Numbered from the stretch's first letter, positions 34,799 to 61,602 are shown. The stretch: DNA of 64,000 nt from an uncultured bacterium (GCA_963840885.1 CAWJAN010000006.1:116530-180529); one strand, 5' to 3'. Notes: generated from the letters alone by a model not told the origin. Program-made: numbers and translations.

Positions 34799-34826
34799 TT
34801 GACAAATTCTTATAATAGTGTATACT
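34799..34826 (+). promoter_or_regulatory. sigma70-type promoter of GC-rich cassette 1
   Basis: TTGACA (34799-34804), 16 nt spacer, TATACT (34821-34826); RBS GGAGG 34861-34865. Confidence 0.5.
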
Positions 34827-34870
34827 TTATACCGAAGTTCATCACATAGTTTTTGTCCAAGGAGGACAAC

Positions 34871-35398
34871 ATGATCAATCACAGCACCGAACAGATTCAA
34901 GTGCCGTCCACCGTGGATGTCATCAAGATTCGCAGGGTCCTTTGGGTCCTGTTCGCGGTCATTTTGATCGCGATGTTCATAGGTTTCCTGTTTCATTTCC
35001 TGTTGCAAAAGTACTCGTTCAAAATCGAGGAAAAGGGGAATGGGCAGCCGGCGGCGGCGCAGAATTATGCTCCGCCTTCCTCAATGGTCCCGAACGATGC
35101 GCAAGCATCTGCCGGTACGCCGACAAAATTCGTAGCAGTCTTTACGAGCTACGAACAGCCGGTTAGGTTTGTGAACGGCACAACCATGCAGGATATCTGC
35201 AAGGTTTATCCGCCTGATTCAGGCAATGATTCGCGGGAAACGCGCGTCAGAGTTCACAACGACCAAGAAGCGAGAGGATATTTTCTTCTCGTCGAGGATA
35301 TGTCCGGAAGGGTTTTGGCGAAGCATGACTTCGACATGACTCTGAACGGCCGGTGGAAATGGTCCGTGAAAACTGACCAAACTGAACCGATGAGCTGA
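34871..35398 (+). CDS. hypothetical single-pass membrane protein, compositionally foreign (GC about 50%)
   Basis: ATG at 34871 is 5 nt after GGAGG; TM VLWVLFAVILIAMFIGFLFHFLL; Pro/Ala/Gln linker; about 90-aa C-terminal domain; G/C-ending codons unlike the neighbours. Confidence 0.55.
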   Translation: MINHSTEQIQVPSTVDVIKIRRVLWVLFAVILIAMFIGFLFHFLLQKYSFKIEEKGNGQPAAAQNYAPPSSMVPNDAQASAGTPTKFVAVFTSYEQPVRFVNGTTMQDICKVYPPDSGNDSRETRVRVHNDQEARGYFLLVEDMSGRVLAKHDFDMTLNGRWKWSVKTDQTEPMS

Positions 35399-35410
35399 GC
35401 TTCACCCAGG

Positions 35411-35488
35411 GCCTCGCAACCGTTAACACGGTTTGCGAGGCTCTTTTTATTTAGGCGGATTTTGCGAAGCAAAATCCGCCTATTTTTT
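35411..35488 (+). terminator. tandem pair of rho-independent terminators
   Basis: gcctcgcaaccg-ttaaca-cggtttgcgaggc + ctttttattt; then ggcggattttgc-gaa-gcaaaatccgcc + tatttttt. Confidence 0.6.
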
Positions 35489-42388: not shown

Positions 42389-45300
42389 ATGAAAAAAATC
42401 CTATCTATTTTTTTGGGCACGCTCTCGTTCTTCTCTTTGCTTGTCCCGGCATACGGACAGTCCGCCCCATCGTCTCCACCAACCAAATCTCCGGCAAAAT
42501 ATTCGCCATCGACTTCCACCATTAATATTCCAGCGCCTCTTTCCGATATTTCCATAAGTAATGTAAAGATAGTGTCCCAAAACGACAGGAACATATCATT
42601 GTCTTTCGATATATCTAACAATACTTTGTCCGTGCAACCGGGAATCAAATACGCGGTCCATCTTCTAAGCCTGGTTTCTTCAACATCAACGCAGATTTCA
42701 GATGAAAAAGTCTACAGTGATTCGTTTACCTTGGATAAGAATTCCACCTTGAGCAAGACGGTTAATTATACTATCCCTGATGCTCTGTCGGCCGGAACTT
42801 ATGAATTTTTTATTGAAGCGGGAATCAATACCGGTTTAACTCTGGCTTCCGCCTATTCGGACATCATAAGTGTTTCGCCGGGATCATCTGGCGTGCTGGA
42901 AATCGTTCCTGGCTCCTGCAATATTTCCGTGGAAGGGACCACAAGAAAAAGCGGGCCTTTGTTTGCCGCCATGTCTGATAGCATAACGGAAAAATGCCAG
43001 GTTATGAGTTCATATCCAGATGGCACGGAATTTTATCCTAAATTTGAAACAAGGTTACACAATCTTTTCGGCGATTTTGCATCTACTACCGGCGGCTCTT
43101 CAGATCCGATATCTCTTAAAAACGGATTAAACGATATAACACTTTCTTTACCAAAAGGAACCGTGCCTAATGATTATTATGTCACTCTTAACCTTCAATC
43201 ATCGGATGGAAAAATAATCTCAAATTCCGATTCCTACACATATTTTTTGGAAGGATTGACCGGCCAGATAGAGAGCGCAGTTTTCAATGAGCCCGAGTAT
43301 AAATCAGGAGATGAGGCCGGTATTTTGGTAAATACCCTTGTTTATGATCTAGGATCATCTTCAAATGCGAGCGGAACGCTTGCCGTTTCAGTCAGTGATG
43401 GATCAGGAAATTTGTGCGGCACGACATCGGACCAGGAAGTTTCATTGTCCGTTCCGACTTCTGTTTTTTCCGTAAACATGGAAAGAGACTGCACAAATCC
43501 TTCGGCTCATATAGTGCTTTCCGCAAAGGATGAAAACGGAAATGAAGTGGTTCTTGATACTAAAGACTTCAATGTCATAACCCCGGCAAAATACATGGCA
43601 AATTACATCTGGTTATTGTTAGTCTTGTTGGCCATAGTAGCGCTTCTTATAATATTTTTCGTCTGGAGATCTCATAAAAATAAAATAATATCAGTTCCGC
43701 AATTGATGCTTGTGGCGGCAATACTGACCATTTCATTTTTTGGTTCAGCACACCATGCTTCCGCAATAAGCTGCTACCCTAATCCGGTAGATTCAACTGC
43801 AGGAAGCAATAGCGGAGGAAGCGGATATATTTTTTGCGAAAGTACCGAAGATCCCATCGGCATGGCTGATGCCAGCGGCAACGGCGCGGGACAGTATTTC
43901 AATTGGTCCGGGCGCAGCGTGTCTTATTACGGATTCGGAGGCGGATTTGTCACCTGGCCGAACAGAAATTTAAACGGCAATCTTTACCTTATTTGTGATG
44001 GAGGCGGAAAAAATTGTTTCAAAGAAACATACCTTGGAGGATATGGAGCTTTTGCAACTCAGGTATATATAACGGGAAATTCCACTCCGGATTACAATAC
44101 TCCGGCAAGCATTTCTTGGAATTCAAGAGGCGCTGGCTGGTGCGATATATGGCAGGACGGAGCCATGATTCATCAGAATGCAGGCACTTGGGGAACTGTT
44201 TCCACAAATCCGGTAATACAAAATTCAACGATCACTGTTTACTGCGGAGGATGGCCGCAGACAGGGCAAGCCAGCGTAACAGTCAGTCCCAAAGCTCTTC
44301 CGACAGCCACAATAAACGCTTCATCCACCCTTCTTGTTTATGGAACTCCCACTAATGTTTCCTGGACTTCGACTAGTGCCAATTCTTGCGTAATAACTGA
44401 TTCGGGTTTTGCCACCGGAATTACGGTCAATGGACAAAATACGTATGGAACCGGCGGGCAAGGCACGTCTGTAAGCGCAGGCAATAATATTCTTGCATGG
44501 TTTGGCACCGGATCAAATATTGTCTATCCAGGATACTCGGTAACCACTGATTACAATACCATGTCATATCTATCCCAATTCAGCCTGAGCAATATAAGTT
44601 CATATTCTTCCATCCCACAGGGAATATATATAGATTCTTCAAACAACAGCTATATTGCAGCCGGAGCCACTGTAGGCAAATATAATTCATCCGGAGCTTA
44701 TCAGTTTTCATTTCAAAACATTCCTTCTCAAGGCGGCGGAGGATACGGAGGAGGGGGCGGAGGCGGCACAAATACAAGTCCAACCTTTTATGACATAACC
44801 AAAGACAGTTCCGGAAATTTTTATGTTTCGGACCAGGCAAATTCTCAGATAGTGAAATTTGATCCTTCAGGAAATTATATCTCATTATTCGGAACATACG
44901 GATCAAGCACAGGAGAATTTATTAATCCTTCGGGACTAGCCTTTGATTCATCGGGAAATCTTTATGTGGCCGATACAGGAAACAACAGAGTTGAAAAATT
45001 CAACCTCAATAAACTTGGAGGATTCGGATATTTGAATGAATTCGGCTCCCAAGGCACCAGTAACGGAAAATTCAGCAACCTAACCTCAAGCGTCATGGCA
45101 ATAGACTCGAGCGGAAATGTCTACGTTACCGATCCGCAGAATTACCGCGTAGAGAAATTCGATCCGCTAGGACACTATTTATTATCATTCGGCTCCCAAG
45201 GCACCAGTAACGGAAAATTCAGCAACCTAACCTCAAGCGTCATGGCAATAGACTCGAGCGGAAATGTCTACGTTACCGATCCGCAGAATTACCGCGTAGA

Positions 45301-47539
45301 GAAATTCGATCCGCTAGGACACTATTTATTATCATTCGGCTCCCAAGGCACCAGTAACGGAAAATTCAGCAACCTAACCTCAAGCGTCATGGCAATAGAC
45401 TCGAGCGGAAATGTCTACGTTACCGATCCGCAGAATTACCGCGTAGAGAAATTCGATCCGCTAGGACACTATTTATTATCATTCGGCTCCCAAGGCACCA
45501 GTAACGGAAAATTCAGCAACCTAACCTCAAGCGTCATGGCAATAGACTCGAGCGGAAATGTCTACGTTACCGATCCGCAGAATTACCGCGTAGAGAAATT
45601 CGATCCATTTGGAAATTATCTGCTCAAATTCGGCTCTTCAGGCTCCGGCAACGGCCAGTTTTCAAATCTGACCTCAAACGTCATGGCAATAGACTCGAGC
45701 GGAAATGTCTACGTTACCGATCCGCAGAATTACCGCGTGGAGAAATTCAGTTCTTCGGGAGCTTATCTTGCTTCTTTCGGTTCAAGCGGCTCCGGCAACG
45801 GCCAGTTCTCAAATATGTCCAATGTTTCCATGGCTATCGATTCATATAATTACATATATATTACCGATCCGCAGAATTACCGAGTCGAAGTGTTCGATTC
45901 AAACGGAAATTATTTTTCCCAATTCGGCTCTTCAGGAACAGGCAACGGCCAGTTCTCCAATATGTCCAATGTTTTCATGGTTGAAGATCCATCCGCAACT
46001 GGTTCTTCATATACGAATGGAGCGGTTTATATCACCGATCCGCAGAATTACCGCGTAGAGAAATTCGGTCCAAACGGACCGGGATTCGTTTCTCAGCTTG
46101 GCGGCTCTGTTACCACCTGTTCTTTTAAAATAGGCAATACCTGCAAAAGCTATACTACAACAAGCATTTTTAATAGGCCAAGAAATCTTGCCATCGATTC
46201 TTCAGGAAATATTTATGTTGCGGACAATGCAGGGTTGCAGAAATTCGATTCTTCATACAATAAGCTTCCATTCAGCTACAGCCAAACAGGACTTAAGGGC
46301 ATAAGCCTTGATTCATCCGGCAATGTATATGTTTCAAACACCACGAATGATAATATATTGAAGATAAATTCCGCAGGCACTCTTATAGGACAAGGCGGCT
46401 CAGGCGGTTCAGGAAACGGGCAATTCAACAATCCTATAGGAATTAAATTGGATTCCTCAGGAAATATTGATGTGGTCGATTCCAACAATAATCGGGTTGA
46501 AAAATTTGTTCCATATACGGTAAACACCACTTATTATGCAAACGGCTCGACATCAACCGGACCGGTTGATCACGATACTACATTCAACCTTTCTTGCATC
46601 GGCAATGGCGGAGGATCTATCGCTACTTCAAGCGTAATAGTTCACGTCCAGCCCGGCGTAAGATTGACCGCACCATATCAGGTAAATCAAGGAGATGATG
46701 TCCATCTTTCATGGGATTCCCAGGGAGTAAGTTCTTGTTTTGCTTCCGGAGACTGGTCAGGCGATAATGCCACCACTGGAAGCGTTCCTACAACTAGCGC
46801 GGATTATGCAGTGCCGACAAGCAAGACATATTATTATCCTATGAATTTCTACATAACCTGTTTCAGCCCTTCCGGAGTCATCACAGGAGCTTCGGCGCAT
46901 ACCGACATGATTTCTGAATGCCCTAATAATCTTATAAAGGCCAGCGCTCCAGTGATATCAAGCTGCACTGCCGCATCGGTCAATCTGAGCTGGGCCGCAG
47001 TTTCTGATTCAAACGACATAATGTACTTCAATATTTACGGCGATGATCCGACGAATTTTCTGGCCAGCACTTCGGCGCAAACTTATACCGTGAAGAATAT
47101 CCCCGTTACCGATAGCAGCTCGACACATACATTTTATGTCGAGGCTGTAAGCGGTGATTCAGATATTATAGCGACAAGCACCGCAAGCGTGCAGGTAGTC
47201 ATTCCGCCTCAAGATCCTTCTTGTCTGCCGCCATCTTCATCGTCAACTCTTTCTTGCAGCGCAATGCAAAACGGCATTGCCACAAGCACGGTATATCTTA
47301 ATAAAACCATGAGCTGGCAGGCCAATATCAGCACTTCTACGGACAAAATAGTCTGGTTCGGAACTAATATATCGTCATCCGGCGACACCACTGTGGGCAC
47401 GACATACAGTAAGATTTATACGACCATAGGAAACAAGGAAGTAAGGGCTTATGCGTATAAAGGAGGTAAGGTAATAGCTTCATGCGCCACAAGCACAATC
47501 AATGTAGTATCTGCGGGAGGAGGCGGAGGAGAAATTTAA
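42389..47539 (+). CDS. giant secreted/surface protein: NHL-repeat beta-propeller array plus Cys-containing Ig-like domains, internal TM-like segment
   Basis: Signal peptide; more than 12 NHL-like repeats (..AIDSSGNVYVTDPQNYRVEKFDP..); poly-Gly tract; C-terminal Ig-like ..LSWDSQGVSSC.. domains. Confidence 0.7.
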   Translation: MKKILSIFLGTLSFFSLLVPAYGQSAPSSPPTKSPAKYSPSTSTINIPAPLSDISISNVKIVSQNDRNISLSFDISNNTLSVQPGIKYAVHLLSLVSSTSTQISDEKVYSDSFTLDKNSTLSKTVNYTIPDALSAGTYEFFIEAGINTGLTLASAYSDIISVSPGSSGVLEIVPGSCNISVEGTTRKSGPLFAAMSDSITEKCQVMSSYPDGTEFYPKFETRLHNLFGDFASTTGGSSDPISLKNGLNDITLSLPKGTVPNDYYVTLNLQSSDGKIISNSDSYTYFLEGLTGQIESAVFNEPEYKSGDEAGILVNTLVYDLGSSSNASGTLAVSVSDGSGNLCGTTSDQEVSLSVPTSVFSVNMERDCTNPSAHIVLSAKDENGNEVVLDTKDFNVITPAKYMANYIWLLLVLLAIVALLIIFFVWRSHKNKIISVPQLMLVAAILTISFFGSAHHASAISCYPNPVDSTAGSNSGGSGYIFCESTEDPIGMADASGNGAGQYFNWSGRSVSYYGFGGGFVTWPNRNLNGNLYLICDGGGKNCFKETYLGGYGAFATQVYITGNSTPDYNTPASISWNSRGAGWCDIWQDGAMIHQNAGTWGTVSTNPVIQNSTITVYCGGWPQTGQASVTVSPKALPTATINASSTLLVYGTPTNVSWTSTSANSCVITDSGFATGITVNGQNTYGTGGQGTSVSAGNNILAWFGTGSNIVYPGYSVTTDYNTMSYLSQFSLSNISSYSSIPQGIYIDSSNNSYIAAGATVGKYNSSGAYQFSFQNIPSQGGGGYGGGGGGGTNTSPTFYDITKDSSGNFYVSDQANSQIVKFDPSGNYISLFGTYGSSTGEFINPSGLAFDSSGNLYVADTGNNRVEKFNLNKLGGFGYLNEFGSQGTSNGKFSNLTSSVMAIDSSGNVYVTDPQNYRVEKFDPLGHYLLSFGSQGTSNGKFSNLTSSVMAIDSSGNVYVTDPQNYRVEKFDPLGHYLLSFGSQGTSNGKFSNLTSSVMAIDSSGNVYVTDPQNYRVEKFDPLGHYLLSFGSQGTSNGKFSNLTSSVMAIDSSGNVYVTDPQNYRVEKFDPFGNYLLKFGSSGSGNGQFSNLTSNVMAIDSSGNVYVTDPQNYRVEKFSSSGAYLASFGSSGSGNGQFSNMSNVSMAIDSYNYIYITDPQNYRVEVFDSNGNYFSQFGSSGTGNGQFSNMSNVFMVEDPSATGSSYTNGAVYITDPQNYRVEKFGPNGPGFVSQLGGSVTTCSFKIGNTCKSYTTTSIFNRPRNLAIDSSGNIYVADNAGLQKFDSSYNKLPFSYSQTGLKGISLDSSGNVYVSNTTNDNILKINSAGTLIGQGGSGGSGNGQFNNPIGIKLDSSGNIDVVDSNNNRVEKFVPYTVNTTYYANGSTSTGPVDHDTTFNLSCIGNGGGSIATSSVIVHVQPGVRLTAPYQVNQGDDVHLSWDSQGVSSCFASGDWSGDNATTGSVPTTSADYAVPTSKTYYYPMNFYITCFSPSGVITGASAHTDMISECPNNLIKASAPVISSCTAASVNLSWAAVSDSNDIMYFNIYGDDPTNFLASTSAQTYTVKNIPVTDSSSTHTFYVEAVSGDSDIIATSTASVQVVIPPQDPSCLPPSSSSTLSCSAMQNGIATSTVYLNKTMSWQANISTSTDKIVWFGTNISSSGDTTVGTTYSKIYTTIGNKEVRAYAYKGGKVIASCATSTINVVSAGGGGGEI
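45041..45628 (+). repeat. four perfect tandem copies of a 147-bp (49-aa NHL) unit, flanked by diverged copies
   Basis: Unit starting ttcggctcccaaggcaccagtaacgg at 45041, 45188, 45335 and 45482; copies appear identical. Confidence 0.8.
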
Positions 47540-55673: not shown

Positions 55674-56804
55674 TTGATTATGGAAAAAGAGGGCAACAGG
55701 ATTGTTGTTAACATAACTCCGGGATCGTTTTTAAAAGGCGTTCTGATAATACTTTTGTTTTGGTTCATGTTCTATATAAGAGACATACTTCTCGTTGTTT
55801 TGACTGCTATAGTTTTAGCTTCCGGAATCGAGCCGCTCATAAATTTTTTCAGGAAAATAGTCATAAAAAGGGTTCCAGCCGTCATAATTTCCTATTTAAG
55901 CATTTTCGCAATACTTGCCGGACTGATTTTTTTCTTTGTTCCGGCGGTACTTAACGAAACGTCATCGTTTCTTGAAGGCCTGCCAAAATATCTTGATTCC
56001 ACTTCTCTTTGGAATCCTACCGGCATAAGCTCGACAGACGTGGCATCTTCGCAAAAAATTGTTGATACGATATCTTCAGGAATAAGCAATCCTACAGGGC
56101 TTGTGCAAAACCAGATCAAAGGAACGAGCTTCGGCATAAGCGACCTATTGAAAGCCGTTGAAGATTTTTCTTCGAATACCGCAGACGGATTCGTAAAAAT
56201 CATGAGCGTTATCTTCGGAGGATTCCTCTCCTTCATACTTATAGTTGTCCTGTCTTTTTATCTTTCTGTCCAGGAAGACGGCGTGACGAAATTCCTGAGC
56301 TTGGTTGTTCCTCTTAAGCACGAAAAATACATAATTGATTTATGGAAAAGATCGCAGAAAAAAATAGGCCAATGGATGCAGGGCCAGCTGCTTTTGGGAA
56401 TCTTAGTCGGAGTCCTTCTTTATCTAGGCCTTATGATCTTGGGAATACCGAATGCGCTGCTTTTTGCGGTAGCATCCGGATTTCTTGAAATCATACCGTT
56501 ATTCGGCCCGATTATCTCTTCAATTCCGGCTATTCTTGCAGCATTTGTCAGCGGTGGCCTTACCGCTGCGCTTCTTGTAGCCGGACTTTACTTGATAGTC
56601 CAGCAATTCGAAAGCCATCTTATTTATCCTCTCGTCGTAAAGAAAATTGTCGGAGTTTCTCCTATAATAGTCATTCTTGCCATAATAGTCGGAGCGCAGC
56701 TGGCCGGCTTTCTCGGGGTGATATTGTCAGTTCCTCTTGTTTCGGCATTTATGGAATTTTTGGATGACGTCGATAAGAAAAAGCATTCATCCGTACAAGC
56801 ATAA
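55674..56804 (+). CDS. AI-2E family transporter (UPF0118 / PerM-like)
   Basis: About 8 TM; ..GFLEIIPLFGPIISSIPAILAAFVSGG.. signature region. Confidence 0.65.
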   Translation: MIMEKEGNRIVVNITPGSFLKGVLIILLFWFMFYIRDILLVVLTAIVLASGIEPLINFFRKIVIKRVPAVIISYLSIFAILAGLIFFFVPAVLNETSSFLEGLPKYLDSTSLWNPTGISSTDVASSQKIVDTISSGISNPTGLVQNQIKGTSFGISDLLKAVEDFSSNTADGFVKIMSVIFGGFLSFILIVVLSFYLSVQEDGVTKFLSLVVPLKHEKYIIDLWKRSQKKIGQWMQGQLLLGILVGVLLYLGLMILGIPNALLFAVASGFLEIIPLFGPIISSIPAILAAFVSGGLTAALLVAGLYLIVQQFESHLIYPLVVKKIVGVSPIIVILAIIVGAQLAGFLGVILSVPLVSAFMEFLDDVDKKKHSSVQA

Positions 56805-58255
56805 TGAATCACGATAAAAAACCGTTTTACATAACAACGACTCTGCCGTATGTGAATTCCGATCCACATATTGGCTTTGCCCTAGAAATTATCCGCGCAG
56901 ATGCGGTAGCCAGGTACAAGAAGCTTCAGGGCTTTGACGTTTTTTTTAATACCGGAACGGACGAGCACGGAGCGAAAATCTTCAAGAAAGCCGAAGAAGA
57001 GGGGATAACGGCGCAGGCATTCGTGGATAATGCCGCAAAAAAATACGAAGACCTCATAAAAATACTCAATATCTTGGAAGATATAAATTTCATACGCACT
57101 ACAGATCCGCATCATGTAAAAGCCGCCCAGGAATTCTGGAAAATCTGCGACAAGAACGGATACATATACAAGAAAAATTACGAGATAAAATATTGCATCG
57201 GCTGCGAGCTGGAAAAGACGGAGTCTGAGCTTGTAGACGGGAAATGCCCGCTTCATCCGAATCTGATAATAGAAATAATCAAAGAGGAGAACTATTTCTT
57301 CAAATGGTCCGCTTTCCAGGAAAAGCTCTTGGATTTTTACGGAAAAAATCCTGATTTCGTGATTCCTGATTTCAGATTCAACGAGATAAAAGCTTTTGTG
57401 AAAAGAGGGCTTTCTGATTTCAGTATTTCGCGTTTGAAGGAAAAAATGTCATGGGGAATAGAAGTTCCGGGCGATCGGGATCAGGTCATGTATGTTTGGT
57501 TTGATGCTCTTGTGAATTATATCTCGACAATCGGCTGGCCGGATGATACGGAAAAATTCCACAAATGGCAGAAGGAAACCGGCGGAATGGTACAGTATTG
57601 CGGAAAAGACAATCTCCGACAGCAGTCGGCCATGTGGCAGGCCATGCTTATGGCGGCAGATCTGCCGAATTCTAAAACCATAGTCATAGATGGATTTATT
57701 ACCGGAGAAGGCGGAATCAAAATGTCAAAATCGCTCGGCAATGTCATCGACCCGCTTGAGCTAGTAAGCGAATATGGCGCCGATGCGCTGCGCTATTTCT
57801 GCTTGCGCGAAGTTTCTTCGTTTGAAGATACTCCCGTAAGCAAAGATCTTTTCAAATCGGCATACAACGCAAGCCTTGCCAACGGACTAGGCAATCTGGT
57901 TTCCCGCGTTCTTACGATGTCCGAAAAGAATCTGGAAAAGCCGGCTGAAACTAAATGGATTGCTCTAGATGAAAAGTTCACCGATGCTTTTGACAGGTAT
58001 GATATCCAGGAAGCCATGAATTTTATATGGAACAAAATAAAATTGCTTGATGAAAAAATACAAAAGACTGAACCGTTTAAGCTGATAAAAACCGATAAAG
58101 AGAAAGCAATTGAAATAATAAAAGAACTTGTAGAAGGAGTTCATGAAATAGCTGTTTATCTTGAGCCTCTTTTGCCGGAAACATCGGAAAAAATCAGAAT
58201 GCTCATCAAAGAAAATAAAAAGCCGGAAACGCCTTTATTCGTAAGGAAAGACTAG
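56804..58255 (+). CDS. metG: methionine--tRNA ligase (short form)
   Basis: ..TTLPYVNSDPHIGF.. (HIGH region), KMSKSLGNVIDP. Confidence 0.85.
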   Translation: MNHDKKPFYITTTLPYVNSDPHIGFALEIIRADAVARYKKLQGFDVFFNTGTDEHGAKIFKKAEEEGITAQAFVDNAAKKYEDLIKILNILEDINFIRTTDPHHVKAAQEFWKICDKNGYIYKKNYEIKYCIGCELEKTESELVDGKCPLHPNLIIEIIKEENYFFKWSAFQEKLLDFYGKNPDFVIPDFRFNEIKAFVKRGLSDFSISRLKEKMSWGIEVPGDRDQVMYVWFDALVNYISTIGWPDDTEKFHKWQKETGGMVQYCGKDNLRQQSAMWQAMLMAADLPNSKTIVIDGFITGEGGIKMSKSLGNVIDPLELVSEYGADALRYFCLREVSSFEDTPVSKDLFKSAYNASLANGLGNLVSRVLTMSEKNLEKPAETKWIALDEKFTDAFDRYDIQEAMNFIWNKIKLLDEKIQKTEPFKLIKTDKEKAIEIIKELVEGVHEIAVYLEPLLPETSEKIRMLIKENKKPETPLFVRKD

Positions 58256-58258
58256 TTT

Positions 58259-58287
58259 TTGACAAATTATAATTTTAGTGTTAGCAT
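58259..58287 (+). promoter_or_regulatory. sigma70-type promoter of GC-rich cassette 2
   Basis: TTGACA (58259-58264), 17 nt spacer, TAGCAT (58282-58287); AGGAGG RBS at 58358-58363. Confidence 0.45.
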
Positions 58288-58370
58288 TGTATTGCAGGCA
58301 AAGAGGTTTGTTTGCTTGTTCTTTCAAGAAAAATCCTGTCTTTGGGCGGGAAAATACAAGGAGGATTGTC

Positions 58371-59030
58371 ATGGCTACAAAAGTCACCGGCGATCTGTAT
58401 GAGAAACTTGACGCAAAGCTTTTTGAGATCAAGCGGCAGATCCGCCAGCCTGGTGGATACCCGTATGATCCGGAGAAGCTTAATAAGTGGTTGCAAGAAG
58501 CGATCGAAGGTCAGTTCCCAGGTTCATTTCATGGGGAAGTGTCCGATGATGGCGAAGTGATTTGTTTTTCTGTCTTTTCAAACGGCAATAGCGGCAAGGA
58601 CTGGATCAACTATTTTGAATCCAAAGGAATTCGCATTAATGATGATGCCCGCGAGCTTCTTTTGTCCAAGCACTTCACATTCACACGTAATCTTCCGTAC
58701 GAGATCGTGATTATTAAAGGAGGATTTTTCTCCGATGACGATCGTGTCACGCAGAAGATTCGCGAAGAAGCGGATCGGCGGGGTTTCAAAACTCCTCCGG
58801 CTGAAGTCGCCTGCTTCATTCGAGATAGGTTCTCAGATACAGAGATCAAAGAAATGGGTCTGCGATGGATTGTTGCTAGGCACAAGCCAATCAAAGATTC
58901 TGGCGGTTACCCACACTTGCTCTGTGCAGGCACGGATGATCCACGCTTTGGGATGGACACGGAATTCGCTGAGCCGGGCGGCGGGTGGCTTTCCAGCCAT
59001 GGCTTCGCGTTTATCAATTTCTTCGAGTAA
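58371..59030 (+). CDS. hypothetical soluble protein, compositionally foreign (GC about 50%)
   Basis: MATKVTGDLYEKLDAK...; ATC/AAG/CGC-rich codon usage unlike the neighbours; no TM; no family recognised. Confidence 0.55.
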   Translation: MATKVTGDLYEKLDAKLFEIKRQIRQPGGYPYDPEKLNKWLQEAIEGQFPGSFHGEVSDDGEVICFSVFSNGNSGKDWINYFESKGIRINDDARELLLSKHFTFTRNLPYEIVIIKGGFFSDDDRVTQKIREEADRRGFKTPPAEVACFIRDRFSDTEIKEMGLRWIVARHKPIKDSGGYPHLLCAGTDDPRFGMDTEFAEPGGGWLSSHGFAFINFFE

Positions 59031-59043
59031 GTTTTTAGTTTTT

Positions 59044-59076
59044 GGCGCGGTTTTCCAAAACCGCGCCTTTTATTTT
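59044..59076 (+). terminator. rho-independent terminator
   Basis: ggcgcggtttt-cc-aaaaccgcgcc + ttttatttt. Confidence 0.6.
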
Positions 59077-59108
59077 ACATTTTATCTACTTCCAGCTACT
59101 CTATATAT

Positions 59109-59885
59109 ATGGAACTCAAATATATCGATATCCATTCCCATATAAGCTTTGCCGATTACGGCAAAGACCAAGCAGAAGTCCTAAAAAGGATGAGGGAGCA
59201 GGAAGTCGGAACGATTACCGTAGGCACTGATTTGGAAAGCTCCAAAGAAGCTGTGAAAATAGCGGAAGAGAATGAAAATATCTGGGCTTCTATCGGACTT
59301 CATCCGAAAGATAATCCCAAAGAGACTTTTGAGGAAAAAGATTTTGCCGAACTCGTAAAAAGCCCGAAAGCCGTCTCGATTGGGGAGTGCGGACTCGATT
59401 ATTTCAGAATGTCCGGCGATATCGAATCGGAAAAAGAACGTCAGAAAAAAGAATTCATAAAGCAGATAGAATTTGCAATCAAGCATGATAAGCCACTCAT
59501 GCTTCATATAAGAGACGCGCATGATGACGCTTATGAAATATTGAAAAAATACGAGGGAAAAGCCAGAGGAAATATACACTTTTTTACCGCGAGCTCGGAA
59601 ATAGCCGAAAAGTTCATCGGGCTCGGCTTTACTGTTTCATTCCCCGGCGTCATCACTTTTGCAAAGGAAACAGAGGAAGCAGTGAAAAATATTCCTCTTG
59701 ATAAGATACATGCCGAGACAGATTCGCCGTTTGCTGCACCCGTTCCTTACAGAGGAAAAAAGAATGAGCCAGATTACGTTGTAGAAGTAGTAAAAAAGAT
59801 TGCCGAGCTGCGAGAAGAAGATTTTGAGACAGTAAGGCATCAGCTTCTCGAAAACGCCAAAATGGTGTTTAATATTAACTTATGA
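59109..59885 (+). CDS. tatD: TatD-family metal-dependent deoxyribonuclease/hydrolase
   Basis: IDIHSHI.., ..ECGLDY.., ..HIRDAHDD.., ..HAETDSP motifs. Confidence 0.8.
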   Translation: MELKYIDIHSHISFADYGKDQAEVLKRMREQEVGTITVGTDLESSKEAVKIAEENENIWASIGLHPKDNPKETFEEKDFAELVKSPKAVSIGECGLDYFRMSGDIESEKERQKKEFIKQIEFAIKHDKPLMLHIRDAHDDAYEILKKYEGKARGNIHFFTASSEIAEKFIGLGFTVSFPGVITFAKETEEAVKNIPLDKIHAETDSPFAAPVPYRGKKNEPDYVVEVVKKIAELREEDFETVRHQLLENAKMVFNINL

Positions 59886-60751
59886 TAGAAAACAAAACAC
59901 TTATCACAAAGCCGAGTGCAGATTACGAGCTTATAGACAGCGGAAACGAGGAAAAGCTCGAACGCTGGGGAAAATATATTTTGCGAAGGCCGGATCCTCA
60001 GGCGCTTTGGAATAAAACTAAATCCGAAACGGAATGGAAAGCGGCCGATGCAGTTTTTGACGGAGACAGAAAAATCTGGAAAAAGAAAAATGAAAGCATG
60101 AAAAACGAATGGCAAATTGCTTTCGGGAATTTGAAATTCAATATCAAGCCGACAGCTTTCAAGCATACCGGAGTTTTTCCTGAACAGGAGCCGAATTGGA
60201 ATTGGACTATAGAAAGAATAAAAAATTCTGGCAGACCCGTAAAAATTTTAAACTTGTTTGGATATACTGGCGGAGCGACTTTGGCTGCGCTTTCCGCTGG
60301 AGCGGACGTCACCCACGTGGACGGCTCAAAGGCAGCTGTGAACTGGGCGAAAGAAAATGCGGAACTTTCGGGTTTTGATAAAAAGCCAGTCCGCTGGATT
60401 ATTGATGATGCCAGGAAATTCGTCATGCGCGAAATCAAACGCGGAGGGAAATACGACGGAATCATCATGGATCCGCCGTCATTCGGCCGTGGAGGAAAAG
60501 GCGAAATATGGAAGATTGAGAAAGATCTGCCGAAACTCCTTGAAGATTGCGGAAAAATCCTTTCGGAAAATCCTTTGTTTTTTATAGTAAATGGCTATGC
60601 TTCGGGATATTCTTCGATTGCTTATTATAATGCGCTTCAGCCAGTCATGAAAAAATATGGCGGCAGTTTTGAATATGGAGAACTGGCGATTGAAGAATCA
60701 AAAGGAGGCAGATTATTGCCCGCCGGTATATTCGTCCGTTGGAATAGGTAA
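59882..60751 (+). CDS. class I SAM-dependent rRNA methyltransferase (RlmI/RlmK-like)
   Basis: ..LNLFGYTGGATLAALSAGADVTHVDGSKAAVNWAKENAELSG.. SAM-binding fold; ..DPPSFGRG.. Confidence 0.55.
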   Translation: MIENKTLITKPSADYELIDSGNEEKLERWGKYILRRPDPQALWNKTKSETEWKAADAVFDGDRKIWKKKNESMKNEWQIAFGNLKFNIKPTAFKHTGVFPEQEPNWNWTIERIKNSGRPVKILNLFGYTGGATLAALSAGADVTHVDGSKAAVNWAKENAELSGFDKKPVRWIIDDARKFVMREIKRGGKYDGIIMDPPSFGRGGKGEIWKIEKDLPKLLEDCGKILSENPLFFIVNGYASGYSSIAYYNALQPVMKKYGGSFEYGELAIEESKGGRLLPAGIFVRWNR

Positions 60752-60759
60752 TTTTAATC

Positions 60760-61602
60760 ATGAAAATCTTAGATGGGATAAAAGTCCGCGATTTTATCGC
60801 GGACATGATAAGAAAAAAGCTGGAAAAACTCGGAGCAAAGCCGAAGCTGGTCATTATCCAAGTCGGAAACGACGAGCGGTCATCGGTATACACGAGACAA
60901 AAGAAGCTGTTCGGCGAAAAGCTGGGATTTTCAGTCGAATATATAAATCTGGATGAAAAAATAACGGAAGTATCGCTAATTTTGGAAATAGAAAGTTTAA
61001 ATAATGATAAAAATGTAAACGGCATCATAGTCCAGCTTCCGCTGCCGGAAAAATTCAATGAGCTAAAAATAATAGAATCTATTTTGCCGGAAAAAGATGC
61101 GGATGGCCTCACCTCGAAAAATCTTCGCATGCTTTTGGGTGGCGAAAATGGAGGGATAATGCCCGCTACTACAAAAGGAATACTGACGCTTTTGGATTTT
61201 TATAAAATTCCGGTTGAAGGAAAGAAAGTCGCAATTGTCGGAAGATCGTTTTTGGTCGGAAGGCCTACAGCCCTCGCATTTCTAAATAGAAATGCCACGG
61301 TAACAATTTGCCACAGCAAGACCAGGAATATAAAAAAGGAAATATTATCCGCAGATATCGTCATATCTGCCGTAGGCCTGCCGAATTTCATCAAAAAAGG
61401 ATTTGTCAGGAAGGGACAGGTGATAATAGATGTCGGCATAACCAAATTAGGGGAGTCGGTATTGGGTGATGTCGATTTTAAGGCCGTATCAAAGGTTGTT
61501 TCGGCTATAACGCCCGTTCCAGGCGGAGCCGGCCCGATGACGGTTGTTTCTCTTTTTGAAAACGTTCTGGTATCATATATGGTACAAAACGGTCTAAAAT
61601 AA
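60760..61602 (+). CDS. folD: bifunctional methylenetetrahydrofolate dehydrogenase/cyclohydrolase
   Basis: ..VGRSFLVGRPTA.., ..PVPGGAGPMTV.. Confidence 0.85.
   Translation: MKILDGIKVRDFIADMIRKKLEKLGAKPKLVIIQVGNDERSSVYTRQKKLFGEKLGFSVEYINLDEKITEVSLILEIESLNNDKNVNGIIVQLPLPEKFNELKIIESILPEKDADGLTSKNLRMLLGGENGGIMPATTKGILTLLDFYKIPVEGKKVAIVGRSFLVGRPTALAFLNRNATVTICHSKTRNIKKEILSADIVISAVGLPNFIKKGFVRKGQVIIDVGITKLGESVLGDVDFKAVSKVVSAITPVPGGAGPMTVVSLFENVLVSYMVQNGLK

Follow-up and report, generated by a model that had tools for sequence, protein, structure and literature searches.

What is the GC-rich gene that stands alone downstream of a class I methionyl-tRNA synthetase gene (metG) and upstream of a TatD-family gene (tatD) in a 64,000-nucleotide stretch of an uncultured bacterium (GCA_963840885.1 CAWJAN010000006.1:116530-180529; hereafter the window, with positions counted from its first letter)? 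The initial annotation described its product as a soluble protein of unknown kind and took the gene to be a second foreign insertion, built in the same way as another GC-rich single-gene unit of the window (cassette 1). Our analysis led to a different answer. Sequence homology placed the window protein in a very large family of Patescibacteria whose members are usually targets of diversity-generating retroelements (DGRs), and the window gene is a DGR-less member of an already known kind, the DGR variable proteins of Patescibacteria. With a probability of about 0.8, we consider that it encodes a soluble two-domain binding protein of this DGR-target family from candidate-phyla-radiation bacteria (CPR, Patescibacteria), and that it is now probably a frozen former target.

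A family of DGR variable proteins in Patescibacteria

The window protein had no match in Pfam, PADLOC, PHROG, NCBIfam or the sequences of the PDB, and the PDB searched with the family profile gave no match either. A word-indexed homologue search returned 9 proteins only and gave the impression of a near-orphan. When 1.84 billion representatives were searched exhaustively with a profile, this impression was corrected: 2,382 clusters were found at E<=1e-3, and 609 of them reached E<=1e-30. A further search, for which the alignment was broadened, yielded 899 proteins, none of them with a Pfam domain. The initial annotation's statement that no motif could be assigned was therefore correct for curated libraries and incorrect for metagenomic sequences, where the 2,382 clusters of relatives are found. 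Of the searches that it had proposed, those with profile-hidden Markov models were empty in curated libraries and productive for metagenomic relatives, and the structure searches led to C-type-lectin folds. Most relatives aligned solely to residues ~54-220 of the window protein, indicating that the conserved unit is the ~165-aa C-terminal domain, which was preceded by diverse ~50-aa N-termini and was sometimes present in tandem. Relatives with source names belonged to the Patescibacteria group, Azambacteria and Pacebacteria. The closest DGR-linked relative was 60% identical in the core domain, and a full-length homologue with the same N-terminal head, 50% identical, was also DGR-linked (locus L019).

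The linkage to DGRs was established in 80 metagenome loci fetched for the C-terminal domain family, out of 100 fetched loci in all. When the reverse transcriptase (RT) and Avd proteins of locus L004 were used as tblastn queries, 27 of these C-terminal domain family loci proved to have an RT, and 38 an Avd, directly downstream of the family gene, and a template repeat (TR) lay ~470 nt past the 3' end of the gene in about 35 genes. The 80 loci and the earlier look-ups held 91 family genes, of which 58 could be judged: 40 were DGR-linked and 18 were clean orphans, in which 2.5 kb or more downstream was free of DGR parts. The other 33 were on contigs too short to judge. The first clue had come from two proteins that had only the N-terminal ~50 residues in common with the window protein. 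In L003, the final 116 nt of the gene were repeated 418 nt downstream with 90% identity, and every mismatch was at an adenine of the downstream copy. L004 carried a pair of variable repeat (VR) and TR (84% identical), followed by a bAvd gene and then by an RT with an LGNxxSQ...YADD motif. Alignment of 12 VR/TR pairs gave identities of 84-93%, with 144 of the 166 mismatches at template adenines. The VR comprised the last ~40 codons of the gene, ending in GFAF(A/V)VSQV; the template consensus was SDGNPNLL..NRNDDGRWLNAYYDNPDNRWNRDNGFAFAVSQV, and the variable positions were templated by AAC/AAT codons. The window protein is thus homologous, as judged by sequence alignment, to proteins with a verified VR at the 3' end of their genes. 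An idea that the domain was a polymorphic toxin or an "orphan C-terminal module" had been prompted by a repeat downstream of the gene for P0009; it was rejected because all mismatches fell at adenines of the downstream copy, as in a VR/TR pair of a DGR.

Two further observations concern the arrangement of these loci. At L058 (5127-12057), two complete DGR units, each with a target, Avd, RT and its own TR, stood side by side within 7 kb of one contig. After the stop codon of many family genes, among them those of L003, L036, L050, L073 and L093, irregular short repeats resembling CTTTGA or CCTTTGA filled ~60-80 nt; they followed DGR-linked and orphan genes, and the window copy had only GTTTTTAGTTTTTGG there. 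A hairpin after the stop codon was also considered as a DGR cruciform; every locus had some hairpin at this place, and the feature did not discriminate.

The AlphaFold model of the window protein had a pLDDT of 86.5. Its structural matches were confined to folds of the C-type-lectin superfamily, the DGR protein TvpA among them, and Foldseek against viral structures gave no significant match. As modeled, the VR-bearing domain is a C-type-lectin-like fold. One DGR clade has been reported to be restricted to Patescibacteria, with targets that typically lack transmembrane (TM) helices or known domains, and the uncharacterized VR-bearing domains of CPR have been predicted to be new C-type-lectin (C-Lec) variants (PMC8144416); the fold of our model is consistent with that prediction. 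No hydrophobic segment was present in the window protein (the maximum Kyte-Doolittle value over 19 residues was 0.64), and neither a TM helix nor a signal peptide was predicted, suggesting that the protein is either cytoplasmic or exported by another route, possibly by way of its head.

These results suggested an anatomy and a mechanism. A helical head of 50 aa precedes the ~165-aa C-type-lectin-like domain, in which the last ~40 residues (aa 176-214 of the window protein) would form a variable segment in contact with a ligand. In the relatives, the cassette directly downstream comprises the TR ~470 nt past the gene, Avd on the opposite strand, and RT; the TR is copied into the gene's 3' end with errors specific to adenines, and the presumed binding surface is rewritten. 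The window copy is a stand-alone gene with no DGR in the 64 kb, and it keeps the adenine-poor footprint of such mutagenesis; most likely it now acts as a binding protein whose specificity is fixed.

A probably frozen former target, or possibly a remote one

The footprint was apparent in the segment equivalent to the VR (58896-59012). Its adenine fraction was 0.145, compared with a mean of 0.134 in verified VRs (range 0.10-0.16), 0.241 in TRs and 0.276 in the rest of the gene, and only 0.8% of the 117-nt windows in the 64 kb were as poor in adenine. NNY codons occupied 9 of the 10 positions equivalent to template asparagines (counted by eye), with a gene-wide NNY fraction of 0.58. The entropy profile of the family over this segment showed near-invariant scaffold columns alternating with hypervariable ones, the latter at ~10-12 positions (aa 180, 182, 185, 187, 189, 196, 198, 201, 204, 207 and 210). 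The window copy carried substitutions at three scaffold positions (R188T, W194G and L195M) in columns with a family entropy of at most 0.7, and its tail read INFFE* in place of the AVSQV of its relatives. In the relatives the gene ended in ...GCCGTCTCGCAAGT, a conserved boundary that may be IMH-like, and the TR in ...CAACT, a difference of G versus C; the window copy ended in ...ATCAATTTCTTCGAGTAAGT, so that the final AAGT alone was retained of the relatives' end.

No DGR part was found around it. Searches by tblastn with the L004 queries gave nothing for RT or Avd at E<1 in the 64-kb window, no YxDD motif occurred in its six frames, and in the 64 kb the gene had no repeat that reached 60% identity across 60 nt, nor was there another adenine-biased repeat pair. 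The DGR search for the window copy covered these 64 kb of a 210-kb contig. As scaffold residues were substituted, the usual 3' end was lost and no DGR part was present in the 64 kb, we favor a frozen former target, on somewhat better than even odds, over a target that is still active.

The latter explanation, which we regard as unlikely and yet as the strongest of the rivals, holds that a DGR elsewhere in the genome, outside the 64 kb, diversifies 58896-59012 in trans. The VR-equivalent is as poor in adenine as verified active VRs, and the NNY codons at the template-asparagine positions would be expected of such a target as well. Orphans were common in the family, and the closest judgeable relative was DGR-linked for 14 of 17 copies (16 clean orphans and the window gene). 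One 473-kb contig carried an orphan copy 55 kb from a DGR whose TR was 82% identical to the 3' end of the orphan over 109 nt. Remote DGR targets have been mentioned in the literature, and published surveys miss them by their methods (PMC8144416). However, the three scaffold positions that homing would refresh have diverged, the conserved 3' end has been swapped for another, and the TR was not found in the 64 kb. Moreover, the orphan and TR of the 473-kb contig, the sole pair that could be tested, differed at non-adenine positions in roughly half of their mismatches. These points argue for a frozen copy over one that is diversified from a distance.

Transcription unit, composition and the question of foreign origin

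The window gene formed a single-gene unit between metG and tatD with its own promoter, structured leader, ribosome-binding site (RBS) and terminator (Table 1). The self-contained unit of the initial annotation was thus borne out by sequence reading and site scans, element by element; only small details needed correction, as the AGGAGG RBS lies 6 nt and not 7 nt before the ATG, the leader is ~75-83 nt rather than ~85 nt, and the protein has 219 aa. The promoter matched 10 of 12 consensus positions, with a TG before the -10 hexamer. It was among the two best promoter-like sites in a scan of 56000-61000 and, in the comparison of these two, the sole one oriented toward the window gene. The terminator stem (59044-59067) comprised 10 bp with seven G-C pairs and a predicted folding energy of -18 kcal/mol, and the terminator was the top terminator-like site in the 5 kb scanned. 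Rfam contained no family matching the leader, its hairpin included. Further neighbors were a gene for an S-adenosylmethionine (SAM) methyltransferase and folD. The sole other assembly found with the gene was the Logan assembly ERR12036782, in which the protein was identical; exact look-ups of TatD and the window protein led to one other small contig with an identical arrangement.

Table 1. Features of the window gene and its transcription unit, in window positions
Feature	Coordinates	Strand	Description
Sigma-70-type promoter	58259..58287	+	TTGACA 58259-58264, 17-nt spacer with terminal TGT (extended -10), TAGCAT 58282-58287
5' leader, ~75-83 nt	58288..58370	+	First hairpin 58294-58315; RBS AGGAGG 58359-58364
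Conserved leader hairpin	58334..58351	+	UCCUGUC-UUUG-GGCGGGA; invariant core CCTGTCTTTGGGCGG = 58335-58349; ~10 nt upstream of the Shine-Dalgarno sequence
Coding sequence	58371..59030	+	219 aa and stop; stand-alone homologue of Patescibacteria DGR variable proteins
N-terminal head, aa 1-50	58371..58520	+	Two helices, H8-25 and H34-45 (alignments, AF2 model)
Predicted C-type-lectin-like C-terminal domain, ~165 aa (aa 56-219)	58536..59027	+	
VR-equivalent segment (aa 176-214, DSGGYPHLLCAGTDDPRFGMDTEFAEPGGGWLSSHGFAF)	58896..59012	+	DNA and protein alignment to verified VR/TR pairs
Intrinsic terminator	59044..59077	+	GGCGCGGTTT-TCCA-AAACCGCGCC then TTTTATTTTA

The composition of the gene was as atypical as first described. 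Its GC content of 0.486 (0.523 at third codon positions, GC3) in a window of 0.413 ranked second among 54 open reading frames (ORFs), behind cassette 1 (0.511). The initial annotation had named an unremarkable codon usage as an argument against itself; when computed, the synonymous-codon likelihood of the window gene was the lowest among the 54 ORFs (z = -2.1), atypical and not extreme. Within the gene, GC was 0.49 in the head, 0.46 in the core and 0.61 in the VR-like segment, and this adenine-depleted, GC-rich segment accounts for much of the "GC-rich" signal.

The same excess was found throughout the family. At 28 of 29 loci, GC was higher in the family gene than in its flanks; the mean excess was 11 points, and DGR-linked and orphan copies showed it alike. 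At ten DGR-linked loci (L019, L034, L036, L051, L052, L058, L066, L072, L084 and L086), mean GC was 0.48 in the target core and 0.60 in the VR, compared with 0.39 in Avd, 0.36 in RT and 0.41 in the flanks. The excess was therefore confined to the target gene, with Avd and RT at or under the GC of the flanks, and adenine depletion accounts for the part of it that lies in the VR. A trait that is family-wide and absent from the neighboring Avd and RT is poor evidence for a recent foreign origin; GC richness is a signature of family and mechanism, which says little about recent transfer. The positions of the relatives varied: some lay between rsmE and a gene resembling holB, others upstream of recO or at further places, and none of the 100 fetched loci contained metG or tatD. 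The gene is thus not a housekeeping gene fixed between metG and tatD, an outcome that would have spoken against the initial annotation and that we did not find at this locus; movement of family genes over evolutionary time is likely. The interpretation in the initial annotation was supported in part, for the self-contained unit, the atypical composition and the variable positions of the relatives.

That the window gene is an accessory cassette gained by horizontal transfer, with an unrelated function such as phage defense or a toxin and an origin in common with cassette 1, is most improbable, and we consider this classification largely refuted. Atypical GC and codon usage, a self-contained transcription unit, the variable genomic positions of relatives and a 10-mer common to both cassette promoters (TTGACAAATT) would agree with it. 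However, the GC excess was family-wide and did not extend to the adjacent RT and Avd genes, no match was obtained in PADLOC, with its known anti-phage defense systems, or in PHROG, and no immunity or effector partner accompanied the gene, whose neighbors were metG, tatD, the SAM methyltransferase gene and folD. The tie to cassette 1 (34799-35460; coding sequence 34871-35398) failed as well. Its product of 175 aa, for which Pfam gave no match, carries a single TM helix at the N-terminal side, is unrelated to the window protein in architecture and shows no sequence similarity to it, and cassette 1 was absent from all 100 fetched loci, so that the co-occurrence which the initial annotation had proposed to check was found in 0 of 100. 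Cassette 1 is the most GC-rich ORF of the window (GC3 0.631); a TTGACA promoter of its own precedes it and two hairpins follow. The promoter form held in common, TTGAC[AT]-N16-18-TAnnnT, occurred five times in the window, always in intergenic sequence and twice before other genes; it is a generic strong sigma-70 form, to which the claim of a like construction reduces, and we see no specific link between the two cassettes.

Elsewhere in the window, a 1,716-aa ORF (42389-47539) contained six tandem repeats of 147 nt (49 aa) at 44893-45992, several of them 96-100% identical, which encode an NHL-like motif SGNVYVTDPQNYRVEKFD. Their near-identity indicates recent expansion or homogenization within a giant protein.

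Several points weigh against a frozen binding protein of the DGR-target family. A TR acting in trans from outside the searched 64 kb of the 210-kb contig is possible. Ligand binding is presumed for every member of the family, the window protein included. The GC excess over the host genome extends to the core of family genes outside the VR, beyond the part for which adenine depletion accounts. Finally, three residues outside the VR, C148, R151 and H171 (nt ~58812-58885), were invariant in 120 family members, which a pure scaffold model does not explain; they may have a structural, metal-binding or catalytic role. That the C-terminal domain is an enzyme like FGE or EgtB, with Cys148 and His171 catalytic and a variable tail that tunes substrate choice, is nevertheless very doubtful, as these invariant residues are countered by the lack of a Pfam FGE-sulfatase match even at E<=10, by the lack of a profile match to the PDB chains concerned and by the FGE-like domains of several structural matches, which are not known to be catalytic themselves.

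Head, leader hairpin and comparison with known systems

The N-terminal head linked the window protein to targets with other binding domains. Its consensus was MxTKVTGDLYEKLDGKLFEIKRQxRQxGGYPFDPxxLxxFLQxAIEGxF, and the synonymous differences from L001 indicated selection at the protein level. P0008 and P0009, both verified DGR targets, had only the head in common with the window protein, and in hhalign comparisons the head alone matched. Three or more unrelated C-terminal domains, each a verified DGR target or a family member, carried it, as did two others for which no DGR was detected, those of L014 (with a duplicated head) and L016. A head-only search returned 15 short proteins of 51-85 aa, which were uninformative on partners. 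Two head-bearing loci differed in layout. At L097 (5001-5258; also L098-L100), a stand-alone gene for one of these short proteins (85 aa) consisted of the head and a short unrelated tail and sat between genes for a MacA-like adaptor and a MacB-like ABC transporter, an arrangement present on 13 contigs from several samples. At L014 (3496-4278), after rplB, two tandem heads preceded a C-terminal domain unrelated to the window protein, and no DGR was detected.

The second hairpin of the leader was conserved (CCUGUC-UUWG-GGCGGG). Its core was invariant across seven loci of different genomes, and covariation was seen in two of the closing pairs. Copies were located at L001 7967-7981, L011 175-189, L012 5964-5978, L029 9964-9978 and L014 ~3466, and the core occurred once in the 64-kb window. 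The hairpin was found only upstream of head genes without an adjacent DGR, including the L014 type with its unrelated C-terminal domain, and was absent upstream of DGR-linked head genes among the fetched loci. A docking or export role of the head and translational control by the hairpin are guesses. More speculatively, stand-alone copies with leader hairpin and head could form a distinct class, although we hold this to be improbable. They might be "frozen receptor" cassettes, independent of DGRs, which change place among the intergenic sites of housekeeping genes in Patescibacteria, or else targets diversified in trans that form a network and share a post-transcriptional control. In such a class, promoter, leader and head would travel as a unit that can be joined to different C-terminal binding domains, and DGR targets with no other relationship would have the head in common as a module for docking or export.

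By its family membership, what looked like an orphan "foreign cassette" can be read as the gene for a probable C-type-lectin-like binding protein of the main Patescibacteria DGR target family. A 3' segment that is rich in GC and poor in adenine can serve as a footprint of earlier mutagenesis by a retroelement where the retroelement itself is absent. For CPR biology, about a third of the judged family copies had no nearby DGR, one ~50-aa head recurred on three or more unrelated DGR target domains, verified or candidate, and a conserved leader hairpin marked DGR-less copies. Head, hairpin and orphan copies offer handles on where CPR DGR targets, which have neither signal peptide nor TM helix, act.

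Among known systems, the FGE-sulfatase, EgtB C-terminal and PvdO domains differ from the window domain, which has no match to their sequence families and is smaller (~165 aa). TvpA (Treponema denticola variable protein 1, PDB 2Y3C) and Mtd of Bordetella phage BPP-1 have variable positions templated by AAC/AAT in common with the family of the window protein, which shows ~11% sequence identity and no profile-level similarity to them. TvpA is a lipoprotein and Mtd the tip of a phage tail fiber; the window protein has a different, ~50-aa helical head, no signal peptide and no virion context. DGRs with multiple or remote targets are known in Treponema and Legionella. Compared with these, the features of the window gene that relate to homing look eroded and no TR was found in 64 kb, whereas the 473-kb contig, with its orphan 55 kb from a DGR-linked copy, resembles them in having a target paralogue away from the RT.

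The targets of the Patescibacteria-restricted DGR clade were reportedly first surveyed by Paul et al. in 2017. The closest likeness of the window family is to this clade ("clade 2" of Roux et al. 2021, PMC8144416), which comes from the same taxon and has small targets without TM helices or known domains. As in the window family, these targets have a modular N-terminus and a C-terminal VR in a predicted new C-Lec variant, and the relatives of the window gene have the order VR, TR, Avd and RT with adenine-specific mismatches. The window copy differs in its 64 kb without TR, Avd or RT and in its degenerate scaffold and 3' end. By these shared features, the window family may be likened to the clade 2 targets. 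The window gene has some value as an instance of a target that is orphaned or frozen, and for the observations on its head and leader.
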